Shown here piece by piece: positions 1,416 through 62,106 of a stretch of DNA of 64,000 nt. The stretch is from Thermoleophilia bacterium (GTDB taxonomy: Bacteria; Actinomycetota; Thermoleophilia; UBA2241). Both the position numbers and the translations under genes were made by a program. The notes under the pieces were generated by a model. The model saw only the letters and a list, made by a program, of their open reading frames with translations. It was not told the origin of the DNA and searched no databases. The stretch is taken from contig DASRZL010000154.1 in NCBI GenBank assembly GCA_035686425.1, positions 954 to 64,953 of the forward strand, in the 5' to 3' direction. Every line of letters begins with the position of its first letter. Positions within the stretch are counted from its first letter, which is position 1.

Positions 1416-1639
1416 CATCGCCGCAGCCACCTCGGACGGCCACATGCGGGTGACCTGGACACATGGGACATCGCGCACCTCCAGTCCGTCGACTGTACTC
1501 CCGCCGCTGCACGTCGTGCCACTGCATCGGCGAGCGGGCCAGGAGCTGCTACGCGAGCGGCTGCTGCGGGCGTTCGCCCCGGTCGTGACGGGGTCTGAGC
1601 TGAGGCTGGCGTGGTCATGCCGGTGAGTGCGGGGAGAAG

Positions 1640-1670
1640 GAAGAGGGCCGCCCTTGGGGCGGCCCTCTTC
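1640..1670. terminator. GC-rich hairpin: perfect inverted repeat GAAGAGGGCCGCCC-TTGG-GGCGGCCCTCTTC. It lies between the convergent 3' end of the peroxiredoxin gene and the CDF gene start. No U-tract.
   Basis: A perfect 13-14 bp stem with a 4 nt loop is read directly from the sequence. It sits about 35 nt downstream of the Prx stop at 1703. Confidence 0.45.
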
Positions 1671-1702
1671 CTCGTGTCGAAGTCGGTGATCAACAAGGCA
1701 GA

Positions 1703-2314
1703 CTACTCGTCGTCCCTCGGCTGCCAGACCTCCCACACGCGTCCGACCAGGTCCGGTCCGGGCTTGAGCACCTTCTTGCCTGGCTCCCATCCGGAGGGCG
1801 TGACCTCCTTCCCCCCGGTGGCGCGCACGTGCTGGAACGCCTTGATCTGCCGCAGCGTCTCCGCGATCTTGCGACCGACGGGCGGGACGAGCACTTCCAT
1901 GGCCTGGATCACGCCGTCTGGGTCGATGATGAACCGGCCACGGATGTCGACGCCGGCCTCAGCGTCGTAAACACCGTAGGCGCTGCCCAGATGGCCCGCC
2001 GCGTCGGCGAGCATCGGGAAGGGCACGCCGCCCTCCGTCATCTTCGCGAGCTCGTTCTCATCCCACATCTTGTGGACGAACTGCGAATCCACGCTGGCCG
2101 ACAGCACTTCGGCGCCCAGCGCCTGGAACTCGTCGTACTTCTCGGCGACCGCCGAGATCTCGGTCGGTCACACGAAGGTGAAATCACCCGGGTAGAAGCA
2201 GAGGACCACCCACTTGCCCAGCAGGTCCGAGAGCTTGACCTGGGTGAAGACGCCCTTGTGGTAGGCGGGCGCGACGAAGTCCGGCGCCTTGCGGCCGACC
2301 ATGATGGTACTCAC
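1703..2314 (-). CDS. Typical 2-Cys-type peroxiredoxin (AhpC/Prx1 family) with an in-frame UGA (2168-2170) at the peroxidatic-Cys position. This is a candidate selenocysteine peroxiredoxin (PrxU-like). The resolving Cys is replaced by Thr.
   Basis: Two track ORFs (2168-2419 and 1703-2107) are in the same frame. They are separated only by the TGA at 2168-2170. Read-through gives ...[45 protein letters not shown].... This is the canonical Prx active-site motif with U in place of Cp. The C-terminal motif is KEVTPSGW instead of EVCPAGW. GTG at 2314 is preceded by AAGGAGA; the in-frame ATG is at 2302. Confidence 0.75.
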
Positions 2315-2552
2315 GCTCGTCTCCTTCGGTTCGCTGGCCTGTGCGTCGTCCTTCTTCGCCGGCTGCTCGCCGACGAGAGAGCCTGTAGGACGGGCACACC
2401 CGACGTCAGTTTCTTCCATGCCTTGCGCACCTCCCGTTTGTCGCTCGTTTGCGGGACCTGTGCTGCCGCAGTCTGTGCGCCGCCACGGACCTCAGCGGGA
2501 GCTCAGCACCGGTTCGAAAGGCCGCCTTTTGTGGGCCGCCGGCAGTTCCGCC

Positions 2553-2621
2553 GGGCAGGTCCTTCATGCCGTGGGTCGTCTTGACCGTTATCTCGGGGAA
2601 CCTGGCGCCCGGGAGCGGCAT
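2553..2621 (-). other. Short remnant resembling the N-terminus of a Prx6-type (1-Cys) peroxiredoxin (MPLPGARFPEITVKTTHGMKDLP). Similarity ends after about 23 codons.
   Basis: Translation of the minus strand from the ATG at 2621 matches the characteristic FPEhxVxTTHGKhKLPD start of 1-Cys Prx proteins. All three downstream frames lose similarity. Confidence 0.25.
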
Positions 2622-2912
2622 GTTCGGGGCGTATCCGTCGTCTGACACGAGGATCTCCTTCGCTGGTCCTTCGTGGTCCAACTGGAGGCCGCAGACTCAC
2701 AGGGCCACATTGCGATGCCGCCTGTTATGAGCGTATGCTCAGATCTACTCGTGAGTCAAGAATGCGGGCAGCGGTCGTTGCGCCGGCTGCGCCTCGCTGG
2801 GCTGGAGCGGGCGAGCTCGCCTGGGCCACGATCGGGCGCGAATGGAGATCGCGATACTGGGCAGGAAGCCGGAGACGGGCCGGGCCGTCACGGTGGACAA
2901 GGATGGGAGACG

Positions 2913-4853: not shown

Positions 4854-5993
4854 TCAGGCCGCCTCGGCGGCCTTCTGCCCCGTGGCCGCCTCAGTCTCCT
4901 CGGCATGGACCTTCACGCGCGAGAAGTAGAGGGCCAGCGGCCGGTAGGCGAGGTGCGCCCACTTACCGAACGGCACCTCGAGGACCAGCATCGGGACGAT
5001 GCCCATGAGGTGGATGATGTACATCGCGTTCGCCGCCGCATCGAACCCCAGACGATGCAGGGCCGTCTGCAGCACGCCGGTGACGGCCACGTAGAGCAGC
5101 AGGTACAGGAACATCCAGTCGCTCTCGTGTGAGTGCGCGTGCTGCGGCGCGTCCTTCTTGAGGCGGCCGCGGATGTTCAGGATCACTGCGGCGATGAGGC
5201 CGATCGAGGCGAGGTAGCCGAACGCGTGCACCCGCCAGTCGATCTCCGGCCCGGCCTGCATGTAGCGCAGGAAGAACATGATGAGCACGAGCATGGTGAC
5301 GTAGCTCAGCATGAGCACCATGTGGACTGCCCACGGGCGTTTGCGATCGCACCTGCGCATCTTCGTCTGGGTGAAGAACTGGTAGGGCAACTGAGGCAGG
5401 GCGGCGAGATAGGAGCCGATCCCGGCCCCCGAGCCGCCCATGACGTTGCGCCACATGCGGAGCACGTTGATGCCCAGCAGGCCGACGAGGATGATCGCCA
5501 TCCCCCAGTCGAAGCGATGGACGTAGTGGCTCGGCAGGAAGGCGTTCTCGCCGTCGTAGACGCTGAAGCTCCCACCGTTCAAGATGCCGAACGCCACGAA
5601 CCCGATGCCGGTGAGGATCGCCGCGATGACGATAGCGATGATCTCCCAGGCGGGCGAGCGGTAGAACAAGCCGCTGAGGCCGCTGAAGTCGTACTTGGCC
5701 GTGAGCCAGCGGCGCATGCTCATCATGGTCTCGGCGGGGTCGGCCTCCTTGGGGCACTGCTCCGAGCACTCACCGCAGTAGTAGCAGAGCCAGGGCTCGA
5801 TATCGCCCTTGAGCTTGTCTTCGAGTCCGACCTGCACGGCGTGCAAGGGGCGGCGCGGGAGGATGTAGTCACCTTCGGAGTGCACGCACACGGCCGAGCA
5901 GTTCCCGCAGTTGAAGCACTTGTCGATGTCGGTCGCGCCGTACTCGTGGAGCTCGTCGGCGAGCCCCGGTTTGATCTGTATCGCCATCGTCAC
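4854..5993 (-). CDS. QmoC-like membrane subunit: an N-terminal HdrC-like domain with two 4Fe-4S clusters fused to an HdrE/NarI-like b-type cytochrome membrane domain.
   Basis: The N-terminus carries CFNCGNCSAVC and CYYCGECSEQC cluster motifs. These are followed by 5-6 hydrophobic helices with conserved His residues (SHYVHRF, WAVHMV, RVHAFG, YIIHLM, KWAHLA). That pattern is typical of di-heme NarI/HdrE anchors. Confidence 0.75.
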   Translation of the reverse strand: MTMAIQIKPGLADELHEYGATDIDKCFNCGNCSAVCVHSEGDYILPRRPLHAVQVGLEDKLKGDIEPWLCYYCGECSEQCPKEADPAETMMSMRRWLTAKYDFSGLSGLFYRSPAWEIIAIVIAAILTGIGFVAFGILNGGSFSVYDGENAFLPSHYVHRFDWGMAIILVGLLGINVLRMWRNVMGGSGAGIGSYLAALPQLPYQFFTQTKMRRCDRKRPWAVHMVLMLSYVTMLVLIMFFLRYMQAGPEIDWRVHAFGYLASIGLIAAVILNIRGRLKKDAPQHAHSHESDWMFLYLLLYVAVTGVLQTALHRLGFDAAANAMYIIHLMGIVPMLVLEVPFGKWAHLAYRPLALYFSRVKVHAEETEAATGQKAAEAA

Positions 5994-5998
5994 TCCAC

Positions 5999-6487
5999 CT
6001 AGATGAACAGGTTGACGTTGGCTTCATCGGCCTTGCCCAGATAGGCGGCGACGCCCTCGAACTCGATGTCGTCGATGAGCTCCTCCTCGGTGAAGCCGAG
6101 GATCTCCATCGACAGCGTGCAGGCGACGAACTTGACGTCCATCTCCCTGGCGCTGTCGAAGAGCTCCTCGAGCGACATGCCGCCGGCATCCTTCGTGGCC
6201 TTCCTCATCATGGGGCTGCCGGCGCCGGCGAAGTTCATCTTGGAAAGGCCGAGCTTCTTCGTGCCCTTGGGCATCATGCCGCCGAACATCTTCTGGAGGG
6301 TGCTCTTCTTGCCGTTCCCGTTCGACTTCACCTTCTCGGTCTTGCGCAGGATGTTGAGCCCCCAGAAGGTGCAGAAGATGGTGACGTCGTCGCCCATGGC
6401 GGCGGCGCCGTTGGCGATGATCAGGGCCGCCATGACCTTGTCGAAGTCGCCGCTGAACAGAATGATGGTCTTCTTGCTGGTATCCAT
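5999..6487 (-). CDS. DsrE/DsrF-like (DsrE2-type) sulfur-relay protein.
   Basis: The TIILFSGDFDKVMAALIIANGAAAMGDDVTIFCTFWGL ... VKFVACTLSMEIL blocks match the DsrE/TusD fold family. GAGAGGAA lies 6 nt upstream of the ATG at 6487. The start overlaps the upstream stop (TGATG). Confidence 0.7.
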   Translation of the reverse strand: MDTSKKTIILFSGDFDKVMAALIIANGAAAMGDDVTIFCTFWGLNILRKTEKVKSNGNGKKSTLQKMFGGMMPKGTKKLGLSKMNFAGAGSPMMRKATKDAGGMSLEELFDSAREMDVKFVACTLSMEILGFTEEELIDDIEFEGVAAYLGKADEANVNLFI

Positions 6488-6759
6488 CACGATTCCTCTC
6501 GTGGGACCGCTTGATAGGGGAAGTAGCCGTCGTCGTCGACCTCTTTGATCTCCGCGATCCAGCCGTACTTGCGCAGGCCCATCACCCAGAAGACGACCTC
6601 TCGGCTGGGCCTGCCCAGCGCCTCGGCTATCTGGGGAATGGTCAGCGGGCCGGACTCGAGCGCCTTGAGGATCCGGCCCCTCATGAACTGCTCATCGCGG
6701 ATGATCTCGCGGACGTCGCGGGGACGTGCCTCGAGCTGTGCCGTGTCGGTCGTGCTCAT
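6487..6759 (-). CDS. Small (90 aa) winged-helix-like protein of unknown function inside the cluster. Possibly a regulatory or assembly factor.
   Basis: The translation is MSTTDTAQLEARPRDVREIIRDEQFMRGRILKALESGPLTIPQIAEALGRPSREVVFWVMGLRKYGWIAEIKE. It is coupled at both ends: ATGA with the upstream gene and TGATG with the downstream gene. The first 69 codons of the track ORF are antisense junk. Confidence 0.5.
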   Translation of the reverse strand: MSTTDTAQLEARPRDVREIIRDEQFMRGRILKALESGPLTIPQIAEALGRPSREVVFWVMGLRKYGWIAEIKEVDDDGYFPYQAVPREES

Positions 6760-8498
6760 ACGCACACCACCTCCAGCATGCCGTCGATCATCGCCTTGAT
6801 CTGGGCGTCGGTGTAGCCCTGCAGGTCGATCGCGTCCGACGGGCAGACGGGGACGCAGCCGCCGCAGCCCTTGCAGGCGGTGCGGGAGATCGTCGCGATC
6901 TCCTTGCCGCCCTCCTCTACCTTGGCGATGGCGTCGTAGGGACAGGTGAACTCGCAGGCGCCGCACCAGGTGCAGGCGTCGGCGTCGACGGTGGCGACGA
7001 GCGGGTCGAGCTCGGCGTAGCCGCGCTTGAGGATAGCGGCGCTCTGGGTCACCGCGGCGAGCCCGGAGGCAACCGACTCGGACGAGGTCTTGGGACTTTG
7101 GCAGGCGCCGCAGATGTAGGCGCCGTCCACGACCGTCTCGACCGGGCGCAGCTTGGGGTGGATCTCGTTGTAGAAGCCGCTCTGACCCACCGGCAGCTTG
7201 AGCGTCTTGGTCAGTCCCTCGTTCTCCCGTGGCACCATGCCGGTGACCAGGACGACCAGGTCGGCGGCGAGCGCGACCTCCTCGCCCTCTGACAGGAGGT
7301 CGCGGGCCGTCACCGTGACGCCGCCGGACTTCGCGTCCTTCTCGACCGCCGGCGGCTCGTCGTCGGGGAACTTGACGAACGCAGAGCCCTTCTCGAGCGC
7401 ATCGGCGTACAGAAGTTCGTACTTCCCGTAGGTCCGCATATCGCGGTAGAAGTGGTACTGGTGGACGCGCCCGGGCCGGGCATCGACCTGGGTCGCCGCG
7501 TGCACGGCTGCCGTGCAGCAGTAGCGCGAGCAGTAGGTGTTGGCGCCCTCCACGCTCTCGTTCTGGCGGCTGCCCACGCAGTAGATGTAAGCGACCGTCT
7601 TGACGGGCCGGCCGTTGTACTTGAGCGGCCCATCCGTCTCGTCGAGGAGCTTCTTGAAGTCGGCGATGGTGACGACGCCGTCGATGCCGTAGCCGAGCTC
7701 GCCCTCCTCCGGCTTGTAGGTATCGAAGCCGGTGGCGATGACGATGGAGCCCACGTCGACGGTGATCGTCTCGAGGCGCTCGCCGTTCGTGACGGCGATC
7801 GTCGCCTCGTAGTTGCCGAAGCTGCCGCTCTTGGCGACCAGCTCCGCGCTCGTGAACACGGTGATCGCCGGGTGCGAGCGCACCTTCTTCTCGAGCTTCG
7901 CTATCAGCTCGCGGCCGTTGCGGCCCTGCGGGAACATCTCGCGGAAGCCTGCGACCCAGCCGCCGAGCCTGGCCTCCTTCTCCGCGAGGAACACGTGGAG
8001 GCCGACCTCGGCGAGGCCGAGGGCGGCGCGCAGGCCTGCGACCCCGCCGCCCACCACGAGGCTCTTCGGCGTCGTCTCGACGACGATCGGCTCGAGCGGG
8101 TCGGTGAGGCGCGTGCGGTTGATGCCGGCGCGGACGAGCCGCACCGCCTTGTCGGTCGCGCCCTCATGGTCGTCGGTGTGCGTCCACGAGCACTGCTCGC
8201 GCACGTTCACCTGCGTGTACTGAAACGGGTTCATGCCCGCGCGCTTGGCGACGTCGCGGAACGTGAAGGTGTGGAGCTTGGGCGAGCAGGAGGCGATGAC
8301 GAGCCCGTCCAGGCCCTGCTCGCGCGCATCCTCGATGATCTCGGTCTGGGTCGCGTCCGAGCAGGTGAACATGGCCGTCTTTGCCACAGTGACTCCCTGC
8401 TCCTTCTCGACCTCGGCGACGACCTCGTTCACGTCGACGTAGTCGCCGATGTTGCCGCCGCATTGGCAGACGTAGACACCGATCTTGTCGGCGCTCAT
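6756..8498 (-). CDS. Fusion flavoprotein: an N-terminal MvhD-like domain, an HdrA-like FAD/FeS core and a C-terminal 2x[4Fe-4S] ferredoxin domain. It is QmoB-like but with the MvhD module at the N-terminus.
   Basis: The MvhD-like block is IGVYVCQCGGNIG...FTCSDATQ...DGLVIASCSPKLHTF...REQCSW. The FAD fingerprint is LVVGGGVAGLRAALGLAE. The HdrA signature is YCVGSRQNESVEGANTYCSRYCC. The C-terminal ferredoxin motifs are CTWCGACEFTCP and CKGCGGCVPVCP. Confidence 0.8.
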   Translation of the reverse strand: MSADKIGVYVCQCGGNIGDYVDVNEVVAEVEKEQGVTVAKTAMFTCSDATQTEIIEDAREQGLDGLVIASCSPKLHTFTFRDVAKRAGMNPFQYTQVNVREQCSWTHTDDHEGATDKAVRLVRAGINRTRLTDPLEPIVVETTPKSLVVGGGVAGLRAALGLAEVGLHVFLAEKEARLGGWVAGFREMFPQGRNGRELIAKLEKKVRSHPAITVFTSAELVAKSGSFGNYEATIAVTNGERLETITVDVGSIVIATGFDTYKPEEGELGYGIDGVVTIADFKKLLDETDGPLKYNGRPVKTVAYIYCVGSRQNESVEGANTYCSRYCCTAAVHAATQVDARPGRVHQYHFYRDMRTYGKYELLYADALEKGSAFVKFPDDEPPAVEKDAKSGGVTVTARDLLSEGEEVALAADLVVLVTGMVPRENEGLTKTLKLPVGQSGFYNEIHPKLRPVETVVDGAYICGACQSPKTSSESVASGLAAVTQSAAILKRGYAELDPLVATVDADACTWCGACEFTCPYDAIAKVEEGGKEIATISRTACKGCGGCVPVCPSDAIDLQGYTDAQIKAMIDGMLEVVCV

Positions 8499-11263
8499 GC
8501 CGTCACCTCCACGGTCGCGGCCTCACTGACGGCGACTTCCGCCGTCCCATGCGCCTTCTCGATGTGCGCGGCGGCCTGGGCGACCGCGGCGCCGGCGTGG
8601 AGGATCGAGTCGGGGATGTCCTTGACGCCCGAGGCCGAGCCGGCGACGAACACGCCGGGCAGGTTGGTGCGTCCGGGGTCCAGGTCCTCGTCGGCCTCGC
8701 CGACGTAGAAGTACTCGTCGAGGCCGAGGGCGCCGTCCTCGAAGAGCCCGGCGACCTGGGTGTTGGGCTGCACGCCGACGGCGAGGACGACCATGTCGTA
8801 CTCGGCCTCGACGATGCCGCCGTCGCCCTCGACGTCCTCGTAGCGGACGATGAGGTCGCCGTTGTCCTTCTCGGTGATCTTGGCGACGCGCCCCTTGATG
8901 AACATGGAGCCCATGTCCACGGCCTGCTTGTAGAACTCGTCGTAGCCTTTGCCCACCGCGCGCACGTCCATGTAGTGGACGGTCACATCGGCGAGCGGCA
9001 GGGCGCCCATGATCAGCTGGTTGTGCTTGATGGAGTACATGCAGCAGATGCGCGAGCACAGGGGGTTGCCCACCTGCGCGTCGCGAGAGCCGGTGCACAT
9101 GATGAAGCCGATGCGATCGGGGACCTTGCCGTCGCCGGGACGCACCACGGAGTTGAACGGGCGCGTCGGGGCGAGCAGGCGGTCCATCTGCATGCCGGTG
9201 ATGACGTTGGCGAACTTTCCGTAGCCGTATTCCGGCTTGGCGTCGGCGGGGAAGAGCTTGAAGCCGGTGGCGAGCACGACGGCGTCGACGTCGACCTCGA
9301 TCTCCTCTTCGCGCATGTCGAAGTCGATGCAGTCGGCCGGGCAGGCGTCCACGCACGCGTGGCACTCAGAGCACACGCCGCAGTCGAGGCAACGGGCGGC
9401 GCCGAGGAAGGCTTCATCCTCGGTCATCGGCGCCTCGGTCTCGTTGAAGTCGGTCGGCGCGGCGTTCATCGCGGCATGGGACTCGAACGGCTCACGCTGG
9501 TCGTAGACGTCCTGCCGCGCGAGCACGCTCTTCTTGTCGGCGACCGGGAGCGCCTCGTCGAACGCATCCGCGTCCAGGGCCTCGCCCTGGAGGAAGCGGT
9601 CGATCATGAAGGCCGCGCGGCGGCCTTGGCCGACGGCGGTCGTGATCATGCTCGGGCCGGTGACGACGTCGCCGGCGGCGAAGACGTGCGGAGCCGACGT
9701 CTGCAGCGTGCCCGCGTCGGCCTTCAGGGTCCGGCTTGGGTTGGCCTCAAGGCCGAAGGACTCGGTGTCGGCGCCCATGCCTGCGGCGACGATGACGAGG
9801 TCGCACTCCACCGTCTGCTGCTGGCTCTCGTCGTACTCGGGAGCAAACTTGCCCGAGGGGTCGAAGACGCAGGTGCAGACCTTGAGCACGGCGCCCTCGA
9901 CCTCACCCTCGCCGGTGAAGTGGTTGACGCCCCAGCCGTCGTGCAGCGTGATGCCCTCGGCCTTGGCCTCCTCGACCTCGAAGTCGTGGGCAGGCATGTC
10001 TTCGCAGCACTCGAGGCTGGCCTGGTGGACCTCGGCGGCGCCGAGACGACGCGCTGTGCGCGCCGCGTCGATGGCCACGTTGCCGCCGCCGACCACGAGG
10101 ACCTTGCGGGCGGAGAGATCGACGTTCTTGCCGAGCTTGACGTCGGCGAGGAAGGTGAGGGCGCTCATGACGCCGCCCTTGTCCTCGCCGGGCACGCGCA
10201 GCTGCACGGCCTTGTGTGTGCCCGTCGCCACGAGGACGGCGTCGAAGCCCTCGTCGGTGAGCTTGGCGGGATCGTCGACCCTGACGCCGGTCTCGATCTC
10301 GACGCCGATGCCGGTGACGTTGGCGATGTCGTCGTCGACGACGTCGTTGGGCAGGCGGTACGCGGGGATGCCGAGTGCCAGGAAGCCGCCGGCGCGCTCG
10401 GCCTTCTCAAGGATCTTGACGCCGTAGCCCTTGCGGGCGAGCTGCCAGGCGGCGGTGAGACCTGCTGGGCCCGAGCCCACGACGGCGACCTTCTTGCCGT
10501 TCTGCTCGGGCTTCTCCGCGGCCTTGGACTCCGCCTGGCCGTACCGCTTGTCGGCGATGAAGCGCTTGAGGCGACGTATCGGCAGCGGGCCTTCGAGCTC
10601 GCCGCGGGTGCACTCGCCCTCGCAGGGCGCGTAGCACGCGCGCCCGAGCGAGCCGACCAGCGGCGTCGTCTCGAGCACCAGGTCGAAGGCCTGGTCGTAC
10701 TCGCCGCTGCGCACGCGCGCGACGTACCCGTGCGCCTTGATGCCCGCCGGGCACTCGTAGGTGCACGGCGAGACGCCTTCGCGGCTGATGACTGCTTTCT
10801 TGGGCACCGCCTGCGGGAAGGCGATGAAGGCCGCCCGCCGCGACACCATGTCGGCGTTGTACTCGTCCGGCACGGCGACGTTGCAGGCCATCTCGCACTG
10901 GCGGCAGCCGGTGCAGGCGGCCTCGTCGATGAACTTGGGCTTCTGCTTGATCTTCGCGTGGTAGCCGGCGGGGCCGCTGCCGTTGCCGTCGCCGCCGTTG
11001 CCGCGGATCGCTTCGACCTCCGCGTACGTGAGCACGTCGATGTTGGGGTGATGGATGGTGGCGCCCATCTTGGGCGTGGAGATGCAGCTGGCGCAGTCGA
11101 GCGTGGGGAAGACCTTGCTGAGCAAGATCATCTTGCCGCCGACGCTCGGCTCCTTCTCGACGACGAGGACCTTGTAGCCCATGTCGCCGAGTTTGAGCGC
11201 CGATTCCATGCCGCCGATGCCGCTGCCGACGACGAGGGCATCGTACTTGCGCTTCTCGCTCAT
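8495..11263 (-). CDS. Large (922 aa) HdrA-like flavoprotein with an inserted GltD/NfnB/SudA-like NAD(P)H-binding FAD module and additional 4Fe-4S motifs.
   Basis: The N-terminal FAD fingerprint is YDALVVGSGIGGMESA. The FeS motifs are CTGCRQCEMAC and CLDCGVCSECHACVDACP. The GltD-like block is KKVAVVGSGPAGLTAAWQLARKGYGVKILEKAERAGGFLALGIPAYRLP. The HdrA signature is CTGSRDAQVGNPLCSRICC. The ATG at 11263 overlaps the upstream stop (ATGA). Confidence 0.8.
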   Translation of the reverse strand: MSEKRKYDALVVGSGIGGMESALKLGDMGYKVLVVEKEPSVGGKMILLSKVFPTLDCASCISTPKMGATIHHPNIDVLTYAEVEAIRGNGGDGNGSGPAGYHAKIKQKPKFIDEAACTGCRQCEMACNVAVPDEYNADMVSRRAAFIAFPQAVPKKAVISREGVSPCTYECPAGIKAHGYVARVRSGEYDQAFDLVLETTPLVGSLGRACYAPCEGECTRGELEGPLPIRRLKRFIADKRYGQAESKAAEKPEQNGKKVAVVGSGPAGLTAAWQLARKGYGVKILEKAERAGGFLALGIPAYRLPNDVVDDDIANVTGIGVEIETGVRVDDPAKLTDEGFDAVLVATGTHKAVQLRVPGEDKGGVMSALTFLADVKLGKNVDLSARKVLVVGGGNVAIDAARTARRLGAAEVHQASLECCEDMPAHDFEVEEAKAEGITLHDGWGVNHFTGEGEVEGAVLKVCTCVFDPSGKFAPEYDESQQQTVECDLVIVAAGMGADTESFGLEANPSRTLKADAGTLQTSAPHVFAAGDVVTGPSMITTAVGQGRRAAFMIDRFLQGEALDADAFDEALPVADKKSVLARQDVYDQREPFESHAAMNAAPTDFNETEAPMTEDEAFLGAARCLDCGVCSECHACVDACPADCIDFDMREEEIEVDVDAVVLATGFKLFPADAKPEYGYGKFANVITGMQMDRLLAPTRPFNSVVRPGDGKVPDRIGFIMCTGSRDAQVGNPLCSRICCMYSIKHNQLIMGALPLADVTVHYMDVRAVGKGYDEFYKQAVDMGSMFIKGRVAKITEKDNGDLIVRYEDVEGDGGIVEAEYDMVVLAVGVQPNTQVAGLFEDGALGLDEYFYVGEADEDLDPGRTNLPGVFVAGSASGVKDIPDSILHAGAAVAQAAAHIEKAHGTAEVAVSEAATVEVTA

Positions 11264-11697
11264 GATGCCGCCTTCCTGGCCGGTCCAAGGCCCGACAAGG
11301 AGGCCGCGTACTCGTGCATGTAGTTGGTGAAGGGCTCTGCGCAGACGGAGCAGACCGCGGCCATGCGCACGCGCTGCGGCTCAAGGCCCTTCTCGACGAG
11401 CATGTCTTGCGCGGTCTGCATGATGCCGGAGGTGCGCTCGGCGCAGTCCGGAAGATACGCGCACTCCTCGCCGTCGGCGGCGATGAAGACGCCGTCGAAG
11501 CCCTGCTCCATGGCGTACACGATCCAGCTGGGCTTGACCGCGCTCGTGCAGGGCAGGTTGATGACCATCACCTTGGGCGAATAGTGCATGTGCGAGCTGC
11601 CGGCCAGGTCGATGCCCGGATCCGAGATGTTGTTTGTGCTGAAGACCAGGATCCGCGGGTCGTAGGCTTGGCCTTCGGGTGTTTCAGCCGCGGTCAT
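11260..11697 (-). CDS. MvhD/FlxD-like small FeS protein. It is a divergent form lacking the N-terminal Cys pair.
   Basis: RILVFSTNNISDPGIDLAGSSHMHYSPKVMVINLPCTSAVKPSWIVYAMEQGFDGVFIAADGEECAYLPDC aligns to the MvhD core. The CCNWCSY position reads STNNISD. The start is at the internal ATG (11697), 2 nt after the tusA stop. Confidence 0.6.
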   Translation of the reverse strand: MTAAETPEGQAYDPRILVFSTNNISDPGIDLAGSSHMHYSPKVMVINLPCTSAVKPSWIVYAMEQGFDGVFIAADGEECAYLPDCAERTSGIMQTAQDMLVEKGLEPQRVRMAAVCSVCAEPFTNYMHEYAASLSGLGPARKAAS

Positions 11698-11699
11698 CG

Positions 11700-11951
11700 T
11701 CACTTCATCTTCTTGACGAAGAGGCGCATGTAGCCGGGCTCCTCGACGACGCCGAGGTACTCGTGACCCATCTTCTTGCTCCACGCGGGGAGGTCCTTGG
11801 TGGTGCCGCTGTCGGTGGCCTGGACTTCCATGATCCCACCGACGGTCACGCTGGGGATGCCCTTCTTGGCGGCAAGGATCGGGCCGGGGCAGCTGGTGCC
11901 GCGGGCGTCGACGATCTTCTCTGCCTGGATGGTGCTGAGGTCCTCTGACAT
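11700..11951 (-). CDS. tusA: TusA-family sulfur carrier protein (CPxP motif).
   Basis: MSEDLSTIQAEKIVDARGTSCPGPILAAKK... carries the conserved CPGP. AAGGAG lies 6 nt upstream of the ATG at 11951. The upstream 20 codons of the track ORF are excluded. Confidence 0.75.
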   Translation of the reverse strand: MSEDLSTIQAEKIVDARGTSCPGPILAAKKGIPSVTVGGIMEVQATDSGTTKDLPAWSKKMGHEYLGVVEEPGYMRLFVKKMK

Positions 11952-16090: not shown

Positions 16091-16327
16091 ATGATGACCA
16101 CTCAGGCAGATGGCCGAGGGACCCGGCGTCAGAGACTCTGTCGCCGGCCACGGCAACAGTGGATCGAGGAGGAGCGCCCCCTGATCGAGCGGCAGCACTT
16201 CTGCAACGCGGAGGTGGCGGCCACCGGATCCGTGGCCATCCGGGTGCCGTGCGACCACTCGGAGAACGACGCGAGTGCCGACAGCGAGGTCCTCGTCTGC
16301 GTTGCGCCCAAGGACGCGGTGGTCTGA
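16091..16327 (+). CDS. Small (78 aa) Cys-containing hypothetical protein. Its stop abuts the next start (TGAATG).
   Basis: AGAGGA lies 8 nt upstream of the ATG. It has four Cys residues (C17, C38, C54, C70). It ends at TGA 16325-16327, directly followed by the ATG at 16328. Confidence 0.3.
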   Translation: MMTTQADGRGTRRQRLCRRPRQQWIEEERPLIERQHFCNAEVAATGSVAIRVPCDHSENDASADSEVLVCVAPKDAVV

Positions 16328-31421: not shown

Positions 31422-31436
31422 TCCAGGGAGGTCCCT

Positions 31437-31889
31437 GTGAACGTCAATGACAAGGACGACGCCGAGCTGCGGGAGAAGCTCACCCCCATGCAGTACAACG
31501 TGACCCAGCGTGAGGGCACCGAGGCCCCGTTCGCCAACGAGTATTGGAACGAGCACCGTGACGGCATCTATGTGGACGTGGTCAGTGGCGAGCCCCTGTT
31601 CAGCAGCCGTGACAAGTACGACTCCGGCACGGGGTGGCCGAGCTTCACGAGGCCGCTGCGTGACGAGTTCGTGACCACGCGGGAGGACCACAAGCTCTTC
31701 AGCACGCGCACCGAGGTCCGCAGCACGGCGAGCGATTCGCACCTCGGCCACGTCTTCCCTGATGGCCCCAAGCCGACGGGGCAGCGCTTCTGCATGAACT
31801 CGGCGGCGTTGCGTTTCGTGCCTCGGGAGGACCTCGGCGCGGAGGGCTACGGCGAGTACGCGGCTCTGTTCGGCGACGAGGAGAAGTAG
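31437..31889 (+). CDS. msrB: Peptide-methionine (R)-S-oxide reductase MsrB. It lacks the Zn-binding CxxC pairs.
   Basis: The SelR blocks are [44 protein letters not shown] ... [24 protein letters not shown] with the catalytic Cys in RFCMNS. GGAGG lies 6 nt before the GTG start. Confidence 0.85.
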
Positions 31890-48424: not shown

Positions 48425-51106
48425 CTACGCCGTGACCCGGCAGCCGCAGACCTTGAACTCGGGGATCTTGGCCATCGGGTCTCGCGCCGTGTTGGTGAGC
48501 CGGTTGGCCGGCGCCTCCCAGAAGTGGAAGGGCACGAACACCGTGCCGGGCCGGACCCTCGACGTCACATTGGCGGGAGTCTTGATCGTCCCGCGCCGGG
48601 TCTCGACCGTCACCTCGACGCCATGGGTGACGCCGAGGCGCGCGGCGTCGTCGGGATGCACCTCGACGAAGCCCGTCGGGACGAGCTCGTTGAGCCCATC
48701 GGAGCGGCGCGTCATCGTCCCGGTGTGGTAGTGCTCCAGCATGCGCCCCGTCGTCAGCGTGAGGGGGTAGTCGTCGTCCGCGACCTCGTCCGGGGACTGG
48801 TAGGCAACGGGGAAGAACTTGCCCTTGCCGCGCGTGAACCGACCGATGTGGAGGATCGGCGTGCCGGGGTGCTCCGTGTCCGGGCACGGCCAGCAGATGC
48901 CGCCGTTCTCGTCCAGCCGGTCCCAGGTGATGCCGGCGTAGGATGGGGTGAGCTCGTTGATCTCATCCAGGATGTCCTGCGGGTCGCGGTAGTCCCAGCC
49001 GCCCGCGGCGCCCATTCGCCGTGCGAGGTCGACGATGATCTCCCAGTCCGGCCGGGCCTCGCCGGGACTCGGGACGGCGGCGCGCACGCGCTGCACCTTG
49101 CGCTCGGTGTTGGTGAAGGTGCCGTCCTTCTCGGCGAAGCTCGCCGCCGGCAACACCACATCGGCGAGCTGCGCCGTCTCGCTCAGGAAGATGTCCTGGA
49201 CGACGAGGAAATCAAGACCGCGGAAGGCTTCCTCGACGTGGGTCAGGTCCGGGTCGGACAGCAGCGGGTTCTCGCCGACCACGTACAGTCCCCTGAGGGT
49301 GCCGGCTTGCATGCCGTCGACGACCTCGGTGACGGTGAGCCCGGGCTTGTCCGGCAGGGTGACGCCCCAGGCCGTGTTGAAGCGCTCCTGTGCGGCGGCG
49401 TCTCCGACCGACTGGTAGCCGGTGTAGACGTTGGGGAGCGCGCCCATATCGCACGCCCCCTGGACGTTGTTCTGGCCGCGCAGTGGATTGACGCCGACGC
49501 CGGCGCGCCCGAGGTTGCCGGTCATGAGCGCCAGGTTGCTGAGAGAGATCACGTGCTCGGTGCCGTGAGAATGCTGCGTGACGCCCATGGAGTAGAAGAT
49601 GGCGCCCTTGGCGGCGGTCGCGAAGATCCTCGCCGCCTCCCGGATCTTGTCCGCCGGCACGCCGGAGATCTGCTCGACGAACTCCGGCGTGTACGTCGCC
49701 AGCACCTCGGGCAGCTCGTCGAAGTCTTCGGTGCGCTCGGCGATAAAGTCCGTGTCGGTGAGGCCTTCTTCGATGATGACGTGCATGAGGCCGTTGACGA
49801 CGGCGACGTTGGTGCCGGGCAGGAGCTGCAGGTGGATGTCCGCTCGCCGCGCCATGTCGATGCGGCGGGGATCGACGACGATCAGCTTGGCGCCCTTGCG
49901 CATCGCCTTCTTGATGTGCAGCGCGCCGATCGGGTGCGCCTCGCTCGTGTTGGACCCGATGATGAGGACGGCGTCGGCGTCCTCGAGGTCCTTGAAGGAA
50001 TTGGTCATGGCACCGCTGCCGAGCGACTGGAGCAGGCCGGTGACGGTGCTCGCGTGACAGAGGCGCGCGCAGTGGTCGACGTTCTGCGTGCCGAGGACGG
50101 CGCGCACGAACTTCTGGAACACGTAGTTGTCTTCGTTGGTGCAGCGCGCGGACGAGAATCCGGCGAGCGCGTCGGGGCCGTGCTCGGCCTTGATGGCGCC
50201 GAGCTTCTCGACCACGAGGCCCAGCGCCTCGTCCCATGTGGCCGGCACGAGCTCTCCGTCCTTGCGCACCAGCGGCTGCGTGAGGCGGTCGGGATGGCCG
50301 ATGAACTGGAAGCCATAGCGACCCTTGACGCACAGGTTGCCCTCACCGGCGCCCAGGCCCACTGGCGACGATATCTGGACGACCTTCCCGTCCTTGACGT
50401 GCAGGTCGAGGGTGCAGCCGCAGCCGCAGAAGGGGCAGACGCTGCGTACGACCTGGGCGTCCCAGACGCGGCACTGCTGGCGGCTGAGCTTGTCTTGCAG
50501 CGCCCCCGTGGGGCAAGTGCTCACGCAGTTGCCGCACATCTCGCAGGCGGTGTCGAGCATGGAGCGCCCGAACGAGGTGGTGATGTACGAATCGAAGCCG
50601 CGCTCGGCAACATCGAGCACATGACAGCCCTGGACTTCCTGGCACATGGCGACGCAACGACCGCAAAGGATGCACTTGCCGGGATCGTACGCGATGAACG
50701 GCGTGTCTTCGCGGGTGTCGTAGGCGCGCTTCTCGCCGGCGTAGGTCGTCTCGGGGACGTCGTAGCGGTACGCCATCTCCTGCAGGCGGCAGCCACCCGC
50801 CTGATCGCAGACGATGCAGTCGTTGTGGTGGTCGCTGAGAAGCAGGTCGATGAGGGTCCGGCGCTGCTCGGCGAGATCCTCGGTCTCGGTGGTGACCACC
50901 ATGCCGTCGCGGACTTCGGTGTCGCAGGCCACGAGTGGCGTCCGCGCGCCCTCGACCTCCACGAGGCACAGGCGGCAGGCGGCGATAGGATCGAGCCTGT
51001 CGTCCTGGCAGAGGGTCGGAATGTCGATGCCGGCGCCGCGCGCCGCCTGCAAGATCGTCGTACCGGGTTCGGCGGCCACCTGCCGCCCGTCGATGCTGAG
51101 CTCCAC
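48425..51106 (-). CDS. fdhA: Formate dehydrogenase catalytic (alpha) subunit. It belongs to the Mo/W-bisPGD family and has an N-terminal NuoG-like 2Fe-2S plus 4Fe-4S extension. It is a Cys-type enzyme, not a selenocysteine enzyme.
   Basis: The ferredoxin-like N-terminal domain is followed by the Mo-bisPGD 4Fe-4S motif RSVCPFCGCGC. The active-site block NVDHCARLCHASTV has Cys where E. coli FdhF has Sec. The track ORF starts at a TTG. The preferred start is the GTG at 51106, 6 nt after GAGGAGA. Confidence 0.85.
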   Translation of the reverse strand: MELSIDGRQVAAEPGTTILQAARGAGIDIPTLCQDDRLDPIAACRLCLVEVEGARTPLVACDTEVRDGMVVTTETEDLAEQRRTLIDLLLSDHHNDCIVCDQAGGCRLQEMAYRYDVPETTYAGEKRAYDTREDTPFIAYDPGKCILCGRCVAMCQEVQGCHVLDVAERGFDSYITTSFGRSMLDTACEMCGNCVSTCPTGALQDKLSRQQCRVWDAQVVRSVCPFCGCGCTLDLHVKDGKVVQISSPVGLGAGEGNLCVKGRYGFQFIGHPDRLTQPLVRKDGELVPATWDEALGLVVEKLGAIKAEHGPDALAGFSSARCTNEDNYVFQKFVRAVLGTQNVDHCARLCHASTVTGLLQSLGSGAMTNSFKDLEDADAVLIIGSNTSEAHPIGALHIKKAMRKGAKLIVVDPRRIDMARRADIHLQLLPGTNVAVVNGLMHVIIEEGLTDTDFIAERTEDFDELPEVLATYTPEFVEQISGVPADKIREAARIFATAAKGAIFYSMGVTQHSHGTEHVISLSNLALMTGNLGRAGVGVNPLRGQNNVQGACDMGALPNVYTGYQSVGDAAAQERFNTAWGVTLPDKPGLTVTEVVDGMQAGTLRGLYVVGENPLLSDPDLTHVEEAFRGLDFLVVQDIFLSETAQLADVVLPAASFAEKDGTFTNTERKVQRVRAAVPSPGEARPDWEIIVDLARRMGAAGGWDYRDPQDILDEINELTPSYAGITWDRLDENGGICWPCPDTEHPGTPILHIGRFTRGKGKFFPVAYQSPDEVADDDYPLTLTTGRMLEHYHTGTMTRRSDGLNELVPTGFVEVHPDDAARLGVTHGVEVTVETRRGTIKTPANVTSRVRPGTVFVPFHFWEAPANRLTNTARDPMAKIPEFKVCGCRVTA

Positions 51107-51195
51107 TGCGCGTCTCCTCGGTGATCGCTTCCGCGCGTCCAGATGAGCCAAGTGTACTCGCGCGTCAAGCGCGACGGAAACTGCGCCGCCCGCCC

Positions 51196-52317
51196 TCAGT
51201 ACTCCCGCAGCGCGTCCAGCCGCACGGCGAGGAAGCGCGCGAGGCCGGCGCCGTCCTCGAGCCCGAAGCGGTGCTCGTGCTCGAGCTCGGCGTCGGTGAC
51301 CAGGGCGAGCGCCTCACCCGGGGCGCAGAGCGGCTCGGTGTGCCCGGCGCCGGCGCGGAAGAGTTCGACGCGGTGCGGGGCGCTGCGCTTGTAGCCCTCG
51401 GCGACGACCAGGTCGAAGCCGGCGAAGAAGCGGCGCGCGATCGCGGTGAGCTCCAGCTCCTCGTCGAGGCGGGTGATGAAGGCGAGCCGCTCGGGTGAGG
51501 CGATGGCGTAGGCGCTGGCCCCGGCGCGTCCGTGCCGCCAGGAGTCCTTGCCGGGGTGGTCGATCTCGAAGGAGTGGGCGTCGTGCTTGACGGTGCCGAC
51601 GCGCAGCCCCAGGCGCACCAGCTCGGGGACGAGCTTCTCGATCAGCGTCGTTTTGCCGGCGTCGCTCTTGCCGACGACGGCGACCAGGGCCGGCTGGGCG
51701 GCCGCCGCGGGCGCGCCCTGCGCCCGGGCCTCGCGCTGCGCCTCCCGGAAGTCGTCCATGGTGTTGATGTTACGAAAGCGCGCCTCGTCTGGGAAGGGCA
51801 CCTCGACGGTACGGACCGCGGGCAGGATGTGGACGATGCGGTGGCGGCCGGCGTCGAGCACGGCGGCCATCGGCACCAGGCAGGCGGGGCCGTAGGCCGC
51901 GAACAGAGGCTGATGGAACTGCCCTCCGATGGCCGGCAGGGCGGCGTCGTGACCAGGAAAGGCGGCGAGGACCCTCAGGGCCGACTCCCTGTCCGGCCGC
52001 GCGATGTCGACGGCGAGCGCGAACACCGGCTCGTGGAAGTGCCGCAGGGCGGTCGCGATGCCGGCGAGCGGCGAGCCCGTTGGCCAGGCATCGTGGAGTA
52101 TCACATCCGCGCGCGCGTCGCCGAGATCGATGTCCTGGTCGTGGCCGAGCACGATCGCGACGCGTGGGAAGAGCTCGCGCAGAAAGGCGAGGTTGCGCAG
52201 CAGCAGCGTGCGGCCCTCGATCACGAGGAAGCGCTTGTCGATGCCGGCGCGGCGGCTGCTGCCGCCGGCGACGAGGACACCGACGTCGATCTGCGGAGTT
52301 CCAGGCGGCTCGGTCAT
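51196..52317 (-). CDS. MobA-MobB fusion. It combines molybdenum cofactor guanylyltransferase with the MGD-biosynthesis adapter/GTPase-like domain.
   Basis: The N-terminal block VGVLVAGGSSRRAGIDKRFLVIEGRTLL is MobA. The C-terminal block LVAVVGKSDAGKTTLIEKLVPELVRLGLRVGTVKHDAHSFEIDHPGKDSWRH is MobB. Confidence 0.75.
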   Translation of the reverse strand: MTEPPGTPQIDVGVLVAGGSSRRAGIDKRFLVIEGRTLLLRNLAFLRELFPRVAIVLGHDQDIDLGDARADVILHDAWPTGSPLAGIATALRHFHEPVFALAVDIARPDRESALRVLAAFPGHDAALPAIGGQFHQPLFAAYGPACLVPMAAVLDAGRHRIVHILPAVRTVEVPFPDEARFRNINTMDDFREAQREARAQGAPAAAAQPALVAVVGKSDAGKTTLIEKLVPELVRLGLRVGTVKHDAHSFEIDHPGKDSWRHGRAGASAYAIASPERLAFITRLDEELELTAIARRFFAGFDLVVAEGYKRSAPHRVELFRAGAGHTEPLCAPGEALALVTDAELEHEHRFGLEDGAGLARFLAVRLDALREY

Positions 52318-52397
52318 GGTGGAGTCAGTGTACCTGTGGCGAGCAGGCGCGTACCCTGCCGGGCGAACGGCGGTTCAGGCAACTCCCGCGAGTCCGG

Positions 52398-59135: not shown

Positions 59136-59401
59136 GCGGCCGACCGCGGACCTGTGAACGACGCCAGCGCAGCGACACCATCTTCGACCTGCCTTCCGGC
59201 AGCCCGGCGGCCGCGCCCCGCGAGAGCGGGCGCGCGGCCGTCAAGCGCGCCTGCCACGCGACCGGTCGACAGGTCGCCGCCAGCCAACGGCGATCGCCGT
59301 TTCCATTGGTAGCATAGGGGTCCATCCGACGGACCCATCCGAGACCGGGCGCGCCGCCTTCTGCCGGGCCGCGCCCTACGAAAGAGGAGGAGCACGCGAA
59401 C

Positions 59402-59947
59402 ATGACCGAATCCTACAAGAACACGCCGCCGGCACCCGAGGACAAGGGCGCAATGACGGCCGAGAACATCGCCGCCGCGCTGGCCGGCGAGAGCCAAGCC
59501 TCGCAGAAGTACCTGGCGTTCGCCGACGTCGCCGACGCCGAGGGCTACCCGAACGTCGCCCGCCTCTTCCGCGCCGTGGCCTATGCAGAGAGCACGCATG
59601 CCCGCAACCACCTCAGTGTGCTCGGCGGCATCGGCACCACGGCCGAGAACCTCAAGGCGGCCTGGGGCGGCGAGACGTTCGAGATCGACGAGATGTACCC
59701 GGCATACGACGCCGTCGCCGAGCTCCAGGGCAATGAATCTGCGCGCGTGTCGATCAGGTACGCCCTGAAGGCCGAGACGGATCACCAGGACATCTACGAC
59801 ACCACGCTCAAGGGCATCGAGGGCGAGAAGGACCTCGATGATGCCCGCGTCTATGTCTGCCCCATCTGCGGCCACACGGTGATCGGCAAAGCGCCTGCCT
59901 ACTGCACGCAGTGCGGCACCACCGCCGAGTTCTTCAAGGAGTTCTGA
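59402..59947 (+). CDS. Rubrerythrin-family protein: a ferritin-like di-iron domain plus a C-terminal rubredoxin-like CxxC...CxxC.
   Basis: The di-iron ligand helices are E..A...Y, E..H and E..H. The C-terminal motif is CPICGHTVIGKAPAYCTQCG. An AGAGGAGGAG RBS is present. Confidence 0.85.
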   Translation: MTESYKNTPPAPEDKGAMTAENIAAALAGESQASQKYLAFADVADAEGYPNVARLFRAVAYAESTHARNHLSVLGGIGTTAENLKAAWGGETFEIDEMYPAYDAVAELQGNESARVSIRYALKAETDHQDIYDTTLKGIEGEKDLDDARVYVCPICGHTVIGKAPAYCTQCGTTAEFFKEF

Positions 59948-60492
59948 TGGAGGAAGCCCTGGAGAAGCGCCTCCCCAAGACCGAGGACCTCGGCGCCATG
60001 ACCGAGGAGAGCCTCAAGGCCGCCTTCGCCGGGGAGAGCCAGGCGGCCGAGAAGTACCTCGTCTGGGCCGACCAGGCCGAGGACGAAGGCTACCCCAACG
60101 TGGCCAAGCTGTTCCGCGCCATCTCGTTCGCCGAGACGCGTCACGCGCGCAACCACCTGCGCGTCATGGGCGGCATCGGCGCCACCGCCGACAACCTCCT
60201 CGCGGCGTTCGGCGGCGAGAGCTTCGAGGTCGACGAGATGTATCCGGCCTACCATTCCATCGCCAAGAAGCAGGGCAACAACCAGGCCGTGCGCAGCATC
60301 AACTACGCGCTCAAGTCCGAGGTCGACCACAAGGGGATGTACACCGACGCTCGCGAGCAGGTGCTCGACGGCAAGGACGTCGCCGACCAGCAGGTGCACG
60401 TGTGCCTCGTCTGCGGTCACACCGTCATCGGCGACGCTCCGGACAAGTGTCCCTATTGCGCCGCCGGCAAGGAGCTCTACAAGACGTTCTGA
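59947..60492 (+). CDS. Second rubrerythrin paralogue, translationally coupled to the first (TGATG).
   Basis: It has the same architecture and ends in CLVCGHTVIGDAPDKCPYCA. Confidence 0.85.
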   Translation: MEEALEKRLPKTEDLGAMTEESLKAAFAGESQAAEKYLVWADQAEDEGYPNVAKLFRAISFAETRHARNHLRVMGGIGATADNLLAAFGGESFEVDEMYPAYHSIAKKQGNNQAVRSINYALKSEVDHKGMYTDAREQVLDGKDVADQQVHVCLVCGHTVIGDAPDKCPYCAAGKELYKTF

Positions 60493-61653: not shown

Positions 61654-62106
61654 GTGGGATACGACTTCGGCGTCGGCCGCGAAGCGCCGACCTTCACTCT
61701 CAGCGCCGTCGACGGCAACGAGATCAGGCTCAATCAGTACCGTGGCGACTGGTTCCCGGTGCTCGTGTTCATCCAGACACAGGCGCCGGACGCCGCACAG
61801 ACGCTTCAACGGCTGAGCTCGGCGGCGGACTCGCTCTGGGGTCTGCGCGGCCAGCTCGTCGGCATCTGCGACGCCGGCCGCGACGACGTCAAGGCCCTGG
61901 CCGACGGCGTGCCCGGTCTCGCATTCCCCCTGCTGCCGGACGACGGCAGCGTCGCGCAGCTCTACGGCGCGCTGCGCAAGGACGGCGCTACCCGGCCGAT
62001 GGCCTTCATCATCGATCGCTCCGGCAAGATCGTGTGGACCGGTGAAGGAGAGGCGGCGCTCGAGGCCCCCAATCTCATCGCCGCCTTCCGCCGGGTGGTG
62101 CGCTGA
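61654..62106 (+). CDS. AhpC/TSA-family (redoxin fold) protein lacking the catalytic cysteine.
   Basis: The family N-terminal pattern is APTFTLSAVDGNEIRLNQYRGDWFPVLVF. Where FxPxDFTFVCPTE would normally be, it reads IQTQAPDAAQ. GGAGG lies 8 nt before the GTG start. Confidence 0.6.
   Translation: MGYDFGVGREAPTFTLSAVDGNEIRLNQYRGDWFPVLVFIQTQAPDAAQTLQRLSSAADSLWGLRGQLVGICDAGRDDVKALADGVPGLAFPLLPDDGSVAQLYGALRKDGATRPMAFIIDRSGKIVWTGEGEAALEAPNLIAAFRRVVR

Follow-up and report, generated by a model that had tools for sequence, protein, structure and literature searches.

A probable selenocysteine-containing peroxiredoxin gene (prxU) with a conserved in-frame UGA codon and a covarying downstream hairpin in a Thermoleophilia-like actinobacterium

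We analysed a 64-kb stretch of DNA, in the following called the window, which has a GC content of 69.5% and whose closest relatives, among the best 80 of 357 relatives, are Thermoleophilia MAGs. On its minus strand an ORF at 2419..2168 is followed by an open frame at 2167..1703. Both parts belong to one and the same frame, which is split solely by a TGA codon at 2170..2168 and contains neither a frameshift nor a second stop. A preliminary description of this DNA had likewise seen two same-frame ORFs on the minus strand that are parted by a single TGA. The features of the locus, which we refer to as prxU, are collected in Table 1.

Table 1. Features of the prxU locus and of a further stress-gene region, with positions in the window.
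Feature	Position	Strand	Description
prxU CDS, long form	1703..2419	minus	ATG 2419 to TAG 1705..1703; 238 codons; putative Sec is codon 84
UGA codon, putative Sec residue 84	2168..2170	minus	Peroxidatic position, FTFV-U-PTE
Putative SECIS hairpin UCUCGGC-GGUC-GCCGAGA	2140..2157	minus	7-bp stem (2157..2151 with 2146..2140), loop GGUC 2150..2147
Shine-Dalgarno-like GGGAGG	2430..2435	minus	10 nt upstream of ATG 2419
Internal AAGGAG and GTG	2312..2326	minus	AAGGAG 2326..2321, 6 nt, GTG 2314..2312; would give a short form of ~203 aa
N-terminal motif G-C-A-R-P-T-G	2381..2401	minus	Residues 7-13, Cys8 at 2398..2396; candidate substitute resolving Cys
Cys74 in LCFYP	2198..2200	minus	10 residues before Sec; invariant (81/81); Phe in Prx2 (VVLFFYP)
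Thr207	1799..1801	minus	Canonical C-terminal resolving-Cys site; EVTPSGW vs EVCPAGW, Prx2 alignment
Perfect 16-nt inverted repeat, 3-nt spacer	1638..1672	minus	Starts 31 nt past the prxU stop; terminator-like, no T tract
Rubrerythrins/MsrB region	59318-60492; 31422-31889	plus	

With the TGA translated as Cys, the joined product was recognized as an AhpC/TSA peroxiredoxin (Pfam PF00578, 6e-39; 1-cysPrx_C, 1e-8), and its best match in the PDB was human Prx2 (7kj1, 7e-48). In the Prx2 alignment the TGA column coincided with the peroxidatic Cys of FTFVCPTE, which is exactly where the preliminary description had located it. The product furthermore contains the PxxxTxxU motif as defined in PMC13188914, with P77, T81 and U84 as its fixed positions.

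A comparison of the joined product with PrxU and AhpC, which had been proposed at the outset, favoured PrxU. Taking U as C, the 238-aa product reached 397.3 bits against the NCBIfam equivalog model NF040737 "peroxi_PrxU" (cut-off 270), which describes a thioredoxin-dependent peroxiredoxin, covering profile positions 2-232 of 233. The 199-aa core alone obtained 374.8 bits and covered profile positions 38-232 only. With 194.5 bits the score for the AhpC equivalog model TIGR03137 stayed below its cut-off of 272; the gene has TGA as codon 84, and its product has Thr as residue 207. The models for 1-Cys Prx (Prx6-type) also gave scores below their cut-offs, namely 113.9 vs 211 bits for NF009668 and 127.5 vs 261 bits for NF009669.

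The conservation of the TGA codon was followed in contigs representing one genome per species, a scan of which provided 357 relatives. The best 80 of these were kept and come from at least ten phyla. In all of them (80/80) a TGA was found at the Sec codon, embedded in the motif GDF[TS][FY]V-U-[PAT]TE, and the frame beyond the TGA ran on for about 150 conserved codons. Among these best 80, relatives from Thermoleophilia/Actinomycetota MAGs had identities of 83-91%, and identities of 68-80% were found for members of the Coriobacteriia, Desulfobacterota, Acidobacteriota, Anaerolineales, Synergistales, Cloacimonadota, Spirochaetota and others. A chance stop at this very codon, which the preliminary description had judged unlikely, is difficult to reconcile with 80 of 80 sequences from this set. 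Its statement that the similarity continues undisturbed past the TGA also agrees with our data: the amino-acid identity of 68-91% continued beyond the codon in the best 80 of the 357 relatives, and for the 150 codons that follow it we obtained dN/dS values of 0.07-0.27 at dS values of 0.35-0.66 against the closest relatives (in this comparison one sequence, L011, was misaligned through an indel). Purifying selection acts on the gene both before and after the TGA.

A sequencing or assembly error that turned TGC or TGT into TGA would involve only a single-base difference. The 723-nt gene including its TGA was, however, base-for-base identical in the ENA assemblies ERZ27256827 and ERZ27256828, which were obtained from two other samples and whose loci are overall 99.8-99.9% identical to the window, not 100%. 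Together with the TGA found in 80 of the best 80 relatives, the two independent assemblies rule out the error at 2168-2170 that had been raised as a concern, such that its probability is negligible. TGA is moreover an ordinary stop codon here and ends 38 of the 56 coding-like frames of the window. From the invariant TGA among the best 80 relatives, the dN/dS values, the identical assemblies and the use of TGA as a normal stop it follows that a sequence error and a recent pseudogenisation, as well as an alternative genetic code, are excluded or very unlikely.

A pseudogene deserves closer consideration. It could have arisen by a nonsense mutation in a Cys-peroxiredoxin or by a recent loss of the Sec trait, and translation would then end after 83 residues. 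This would be in line with the public gene calls of this contig (L081, 16080-16796), in which automatic callers split prxU into products of 83 aa and 134 aa, and with the lack of recognizable Sec machinery in the window and its flanks. A decaying gene is, however, not expected to share the TGA at the same codon with 80 out of the best 80 of 357 relatives, to be free of frameshifts and second stops, and to keep dN/dS after the TGA at the low values given above over the dS range separating it from its nearest relatives. In addition the hairpin downstream of the TGA (see below) is intact in the window and identical to that of the relatives. Overall we consider a pseudogene to be very improbable.

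Bacterial Sec insertion involves a SECIS hairpin, and a hairpin was found right behind the TGA of prxU, with its apical loop 17 nt away from the UGA. Its conservation was evaluated in an ungapped alignment of 80 sequences that covered positions -3 to +44 relative to the TGA. In this alignment 94% of the stem cells were paired, compared to 29-75% when the 3' partner was slid by 1-3 columns. The pairing was maintained by different base combinations: pair 18:33 occurred as GC (22), AU (16), UA (16) and CG (11), and pair 21:30 as GC (51), AU (15), UA (3) and CG (2). The covariation score was reached by none of 500 shuffles, and RNAalifold independently recovered the same stem. Several of the compensatory changes are synonymous third positions (Ser TCN together with Ala GCN), and one toggles between Glu and Asp, keeping the pair. 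A possible loop-closing pair swaps G-C for A-U, which gives GGUC in 48 and AGUU in 23 sequences. Within the loop G25 was invariant and U26 was present in more than 90% of the 80 sequences.

The hairpin was furthermore compared to the consensus used by bSECISearch (PMC13188914, Fig. 2A), which describes an apical loop of 3-9 nt on an upper stem of 4-16 bp, a G at the first or second position of the loop that is usually followed by G or U, a distance of 16-37 nt from the UGA to the apical loop and an energy of -7.5 kcal/mol or lower. The prxU hairpin agrees with all four constraints: it has a 4-nt loop on a stem of 6-7 bp, a loop G, a distance of 17 nt and an energy of -12.2 kcal/mol. An energy of -7.5 kcal/mol or lower was also obtained for 73 of the 80 relatives. 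As negative control we used genuine Cys forms with TGC (n=2), in which the peptide encoded by the hairpin region reads IAATSA or VSALAA instead of ISAVAE and the loop motif is lost. A search of the whole window with Rfam at gathering thresholds gave no match, a result which alone does not show that the bacterial SECIS is modelled in Rfam.

The best known bacterial element for comparison is the SECIS of E. coli fdhF, whose sequence we verified by finding it with 100% identity within the fdhF gene of more than 5,400 genomes. Like this element, the prxU hairpin lies within the coding sequence right after the UGA and exposes an apical GGUC, at 17 nt compared to 18 nt in fdhF. Unlike in fdhF, the stem sequence is unrelated and no bulged U was identified in the prxU hairpin. 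About a third of the prxU relatives carry AGUU instead of the fdhF-like GGUC loop. In the fdhF loop G23 and U24 contact SelB.

A different hairpin, GACCG-A-CCGA/UCGG-CGGUC at 2147-2169 (minus), would sequester both the UGA and the loop of the SECIS hairpin. It was the minimum free energy (MFE) structure of an isolated 35-nt RNA (-14.4 vs -12.2 kcal/mol for the SECIS hairpin) and of short fragments within this high-GC clade. In a 46-nt context the SECIS stem was the MFE structure and the UGA-pairing hairpin was gone. We rejected the latter as a functional element, since it showed no covariation and 488 of 500 shuffles scored as high.

The hairpin also bears on a possible UGA read-through without selenium, in which near-cognate or suppressor decoding would insert Cys or Trp in a host without Sec machinery. 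Such a mechanism would be in agreement with the database translations of some family members (P0002, P0028, P0035 and P0047), which have W at the Sec position, as well as with the lack of visible Sec machinery in the DNA searched. The W entries are, however, apparently an artefact: they are most simply accounted for if the genes on short contigs were called using a UGA=Trp table. Trp can moreover not act as a peroxidatic residue, and a general read-through of UGA is at odds with the 38 of 56 coding frames of the window that are terminated by TGA. Selenium-free decoding would also leave unexplained why a hairpin that is conserved, covaries and carries a GGUC loop like that of fdhF is located at SECIS distance. 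We therefore assign it a probability as low as that of a pseudogene.

Finally, the two parts of the frame could be two functional genes, whose N-terminal fragment of 83 aa and C-terminal fragment of 134 aa would constitute a split peroxiredoxin. The public annotation lists two genes, and a GTG codon is available at 2107 as a start for the second one. Yet the stretch of 20 codons from the TGA to this GTG is conserved in frame across phyla, and the peroxidatic residue would be contained in neither of the fragments. The Cys forms of the family are, in addition, single proteins of 237-240 aa. A split peroxiredoxin is thus even less probable than the selenium-free read-through.

The start of the gene was assigned from the conservation of its N-terminal part. 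Nearly all relatives have an N-terminal extension that consists of the motif GC[AG][RK]PTG followed by a variable linker rich in acidic residues and lysine. In the codons of this extension the synonymous sites vary freely, and the amino acids are kept. The extension is therefore translated, and the N-terminus of prxU is likely the ATG at 2419, giving 238 aa, rather than the GTG at 2314, giving 203 aa. In most relatives across phyla an internal start of the Prx domain is preceded, at a distance of 5-10 nt, by an SD-like AAGGAG(G), which encodes Lys-Glu, and this sequence persists even in relatives whose genomes have a GC content of 34-40%. Given this conservation of the internal Shine-Dalgarno sequence, a form of about 203 aa that starts from GTG 2314 may also be made. 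This suggests, as a hypothesis, that two isoforms of 238 aa and about 203 aa would be generated by internal initiation. The length of 203 aa that had been given in the preliminary description is accordingly unlikely to be that of the main product, but could correspond to the short form. The PrxU of Eubacterium acidaminophilum is reported to have 203 aa and to be without a second Cys.

With regard to its fold, its PxxxTxxC and Arg motifs and a similarity of 45-50%, the product is like typical 2-Cys peroxiredoxins such as AhpC and human Prx2. Unlike these, it has Sec in place of the peroxidatic Cys, Thr in place of the C-terminal resolving Cys, an extra N-terminal tail of about 39 aa with a Cys, and Cys in place of Phe at position -10. 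Thr or Met occupied the canonical resolving site in 67 of the 76 readable relatives among the best 80 of 357. It had been stated that the resolving Cys is absent, which is correct for the canonical site; two other cysteines that come into question, the conserved Cys8 near the N-terminus and the invariant Cys74, are nevertheless present.

The GCARPTG motif with Cys8 sits on the variable tail of about 39 aa, which is rich in acidic residues and Lys and which in our reading is predicted to be flexible. The tail Cys was present in the relatives wherever the tail could be assessed, and it was found in every relative that has Thr or Met at the canonical site together with an assessable N-terminus. 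Three relatives (L035, L067 and L069) have no tail, with a stop upstream, and all of them keep EVCPSGW at the canonical site. These three loci may perhaps represent one evolutionary event only. Tentatively, Cys8 (or Cys74) could form a selenenylsulfide in place of the C-terminal resolving Cys, and in combination with two isoforms this could lead to oligomers that mix subunits with and without the tail; judged from the sequence pattern we regard this scheme as a possible but rather doubtful one. That a resolving thiol can be placed on the N-terminal side of the peroxidatic residue is exemplified by yeast Ahp1 of the Prx5 subfamily. Ahp1 belongs to a different Prx subfamily, and its Cys lies within the fold and not on a disordered tail, such that a functional analogy of the prxU tail Cys to an Ahp1-type N-terminal resolving Cys would be hypothetical. 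Such a recycling route would differ from those described for AhpC/Prx1-type peroxiredoxins, and in the literature searched here we found no description of a recycling route of prxU via an N-terminal Cys combined with two isoforms.

Sec decoding depends on further genes, which we searched for in the window and beyond. Using Pfam and NCBIfam profiles on about 55 coding frames, selA, selB and selD were not found in the 64-kb window, and ARAGORN detected no tRNA-Sec either in the window or in 85 fetched loci. This is in accordance with the earlier statement that sel genes are absent from the window. Neither these genes nor a tRNA-Sec were found within the 10 kb past the right end of the window, which are covered by the parent 114-kb ENA contig. 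A literature search for Thermoleophilia together with selenocysteine revealed nothing relevant. In the locus L089 (Desulfoferula mesophila, AP028679.1) a genuine TGC Cys-form PrxU with the same N-terminal tail is located at 6001-6723, and an AIRS/AIRS_C gene resembling selD is found 2.3 kb away from it at 9061-10107.

Two scans for in-frame TGA codons, of which the first asked for long flanks with coding-like GC3 and the second for short flanks with motifs of the CxxU/UxxC type, provided no second selenoprotein candidate in the window that could serve as independent evidence of the Sec trait. The same-frame TGA junctions at 16325, 22830 and 31419 were rejected as selenoproteins because they turned out to be ordinary gene boundaries. 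The alpha subunit of an NAD-type formate dehydrogenase (FDH) with a NuoG-like N-terminus is encoded at 48425-51313 (minus) and is adjoined by a fused MobA-MobB gene at 51196-52374. It has a Cys at the Sec position of E. coli FdhH (HCARLCHAST), just as had been described. To conclude from this that the organism employs Sec for a peroxidase and not for FDH goes too far, since just one FDH was seen in 64 kb.

The neighbourhood of prxU contains a CDF transporter with a fused NifX-like domain, a MoaE-like gene, DUF1847 and TrmO. The inverted repeat that follows prxU is positioned between the stop of the gene, which looks convergent, and the region of the CDF transporter; it was not caught by a terminator scan that relies on T tails. 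Beyond these neighbours, a cluster on the minus strand (4854-11951) comprises TusA, FlpD (MvhD-like), a 922-aa HdrA/GltD-like flavoprotein, a 580-aa HdrA-like protein, a 90-aa ORF, DsrE2 and a 377-aa Fe-S membrane protein. Several of the families in this cluster have Sec forms elsewhere, and all of them are Cys forms here.

Just upstream of prxU, within an ORF at 2681..2406, 22 codons at 2550-2615 (minus) encode LPGARFPEITVKTTHGMKDLPG. This stretch resembles the extreme N-terminus of an archaeal-type Prx6 (PDB 6iu0, residues 3-24, E=0.05), after which the frame degenerates. It was seen in the contigs of this strain only and in none of the relatives examined. It could conceivably be what is left of a Cys-peroxiredoxin gene that was displaced, or else a chance match. 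At the other end of the window (61654-62106, plus strand) a 150-aa AhpC/TSA-like ORF encodes a Cys-less protein with a redoxin fold, which has no Cys at the peroxidatic position either (VLVFIQTQAPDAAQTL); it adjoins genes for a rhodanese and a glutaredoxin.

The window also holds further genes linked to oxidative stress, namely those for two tandem rubrerythrins, MsrB, a hemerythrin and a glutaredoxin. In one relative (L005, 860-2834) a catalase and a Fur-family regulator immediately precede prxU. This context and the stress genes of the window fit a role of prxU in peroxide defence.

In summary, the region 2419..1703 on the minus strand most probably (with a probability of roughly 0.93) constitutes a single gene, prxU, which encodes an AhpC/Prx1-type peroxiredoxin with thioredoxin fold and Sec as peroxidatic residue. 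The preliminary description had already proposed a Sec-containing protein of the PrxU type, and this reading gains support from the conserved TGA, the covarying SECIS hairpin, the purifying selection, the identical assemblies and the NF040737 score above cut-off. From the gene we infer that Sec is inserted, that selA, selB, selC and selD are located elsewhere in the genome, that the product is active as a peroxidase and that one of its thiols acts as resolving partner. Considering the intact and constrained gene and its SECIS hairpin, the host very likely has the Sec-decoding trait, with a residual uncertainty of about 5-7%.

During translation, the UGA would accordingly not be decoded as a stop. 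The hairpin 17 nt downstream would act as a bacterial SECIS that recruits SelB with Sec-tRNA(Sec), such that Sec would be placed at residue 84. Within P77-x3-T81-x2-U84 and an Arg pocket the selenolate would then reduce H2O2 or organic hydroperoxides and be converted to the selenenic acid. The latter would be recycled by thiols, most likely through a selenenylsulfide with Cys8 (or Cys74) and finally by thioredoxin. The C-terminal resolving Cys of typical 2-Cys peroxiredoxins would not be involved, because this position is Thr here.

Peroxiredoxin (PF00578, TxxU) is listed among the known prokaryotic selenoproteins in a 2026 review, which refers to the purified enzyme from Eubacterium acidaminophilum (PMC13188914), i.e. 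the Sec-containing PrxU of Eubacterium (Peptoclostridium) acidaminophilum (Sohling et al. 2001, as cited in PMC13188914). In a survey from 2006, Sec-Prx was the fifth most common bacterial selenoprotein family, with 12 genes, of which one came from Symbiobacterium, then placed with the Actinobacteria (PMC1794560). Like the E. acidaminophilum PrxU family, the gene described here has a UGA-encoded putative Sec at the peroxidatic TxxU and a non-Cys residue, here Thr, at the C-terminal resolving site. Unlike for the E. acidaminophilum enzyme, the host is not a clostridium but an uncultured Thermoleophilia-like actinobacterium of 69.5% GC. The gene is an additional member of the known and curated PrxU family and is not novel as a kind.

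For the biology of the family little changes, since a Sec-peroxiredoxin was purified in 2001 and the NCBI model is curated; model NF040737 already includes the N-terminal extension. The conserved Cys tail, Cys74 and the internal start are possibly new with respect to the literature searched, and they provide clues to the recycling of a 1-Sec peroxiredoxin that lacks the usual resolving Cys. For annotation the locus is of value because the splitting of prxU in public gene calls and the W at the Sec position of related entries hide a selenoprotein. As a marker, prxU indicates that a Thermoleophilia-like population with Hdr/DsrE, rubrerythrin and FDH genes is very likely Sec-decoding.
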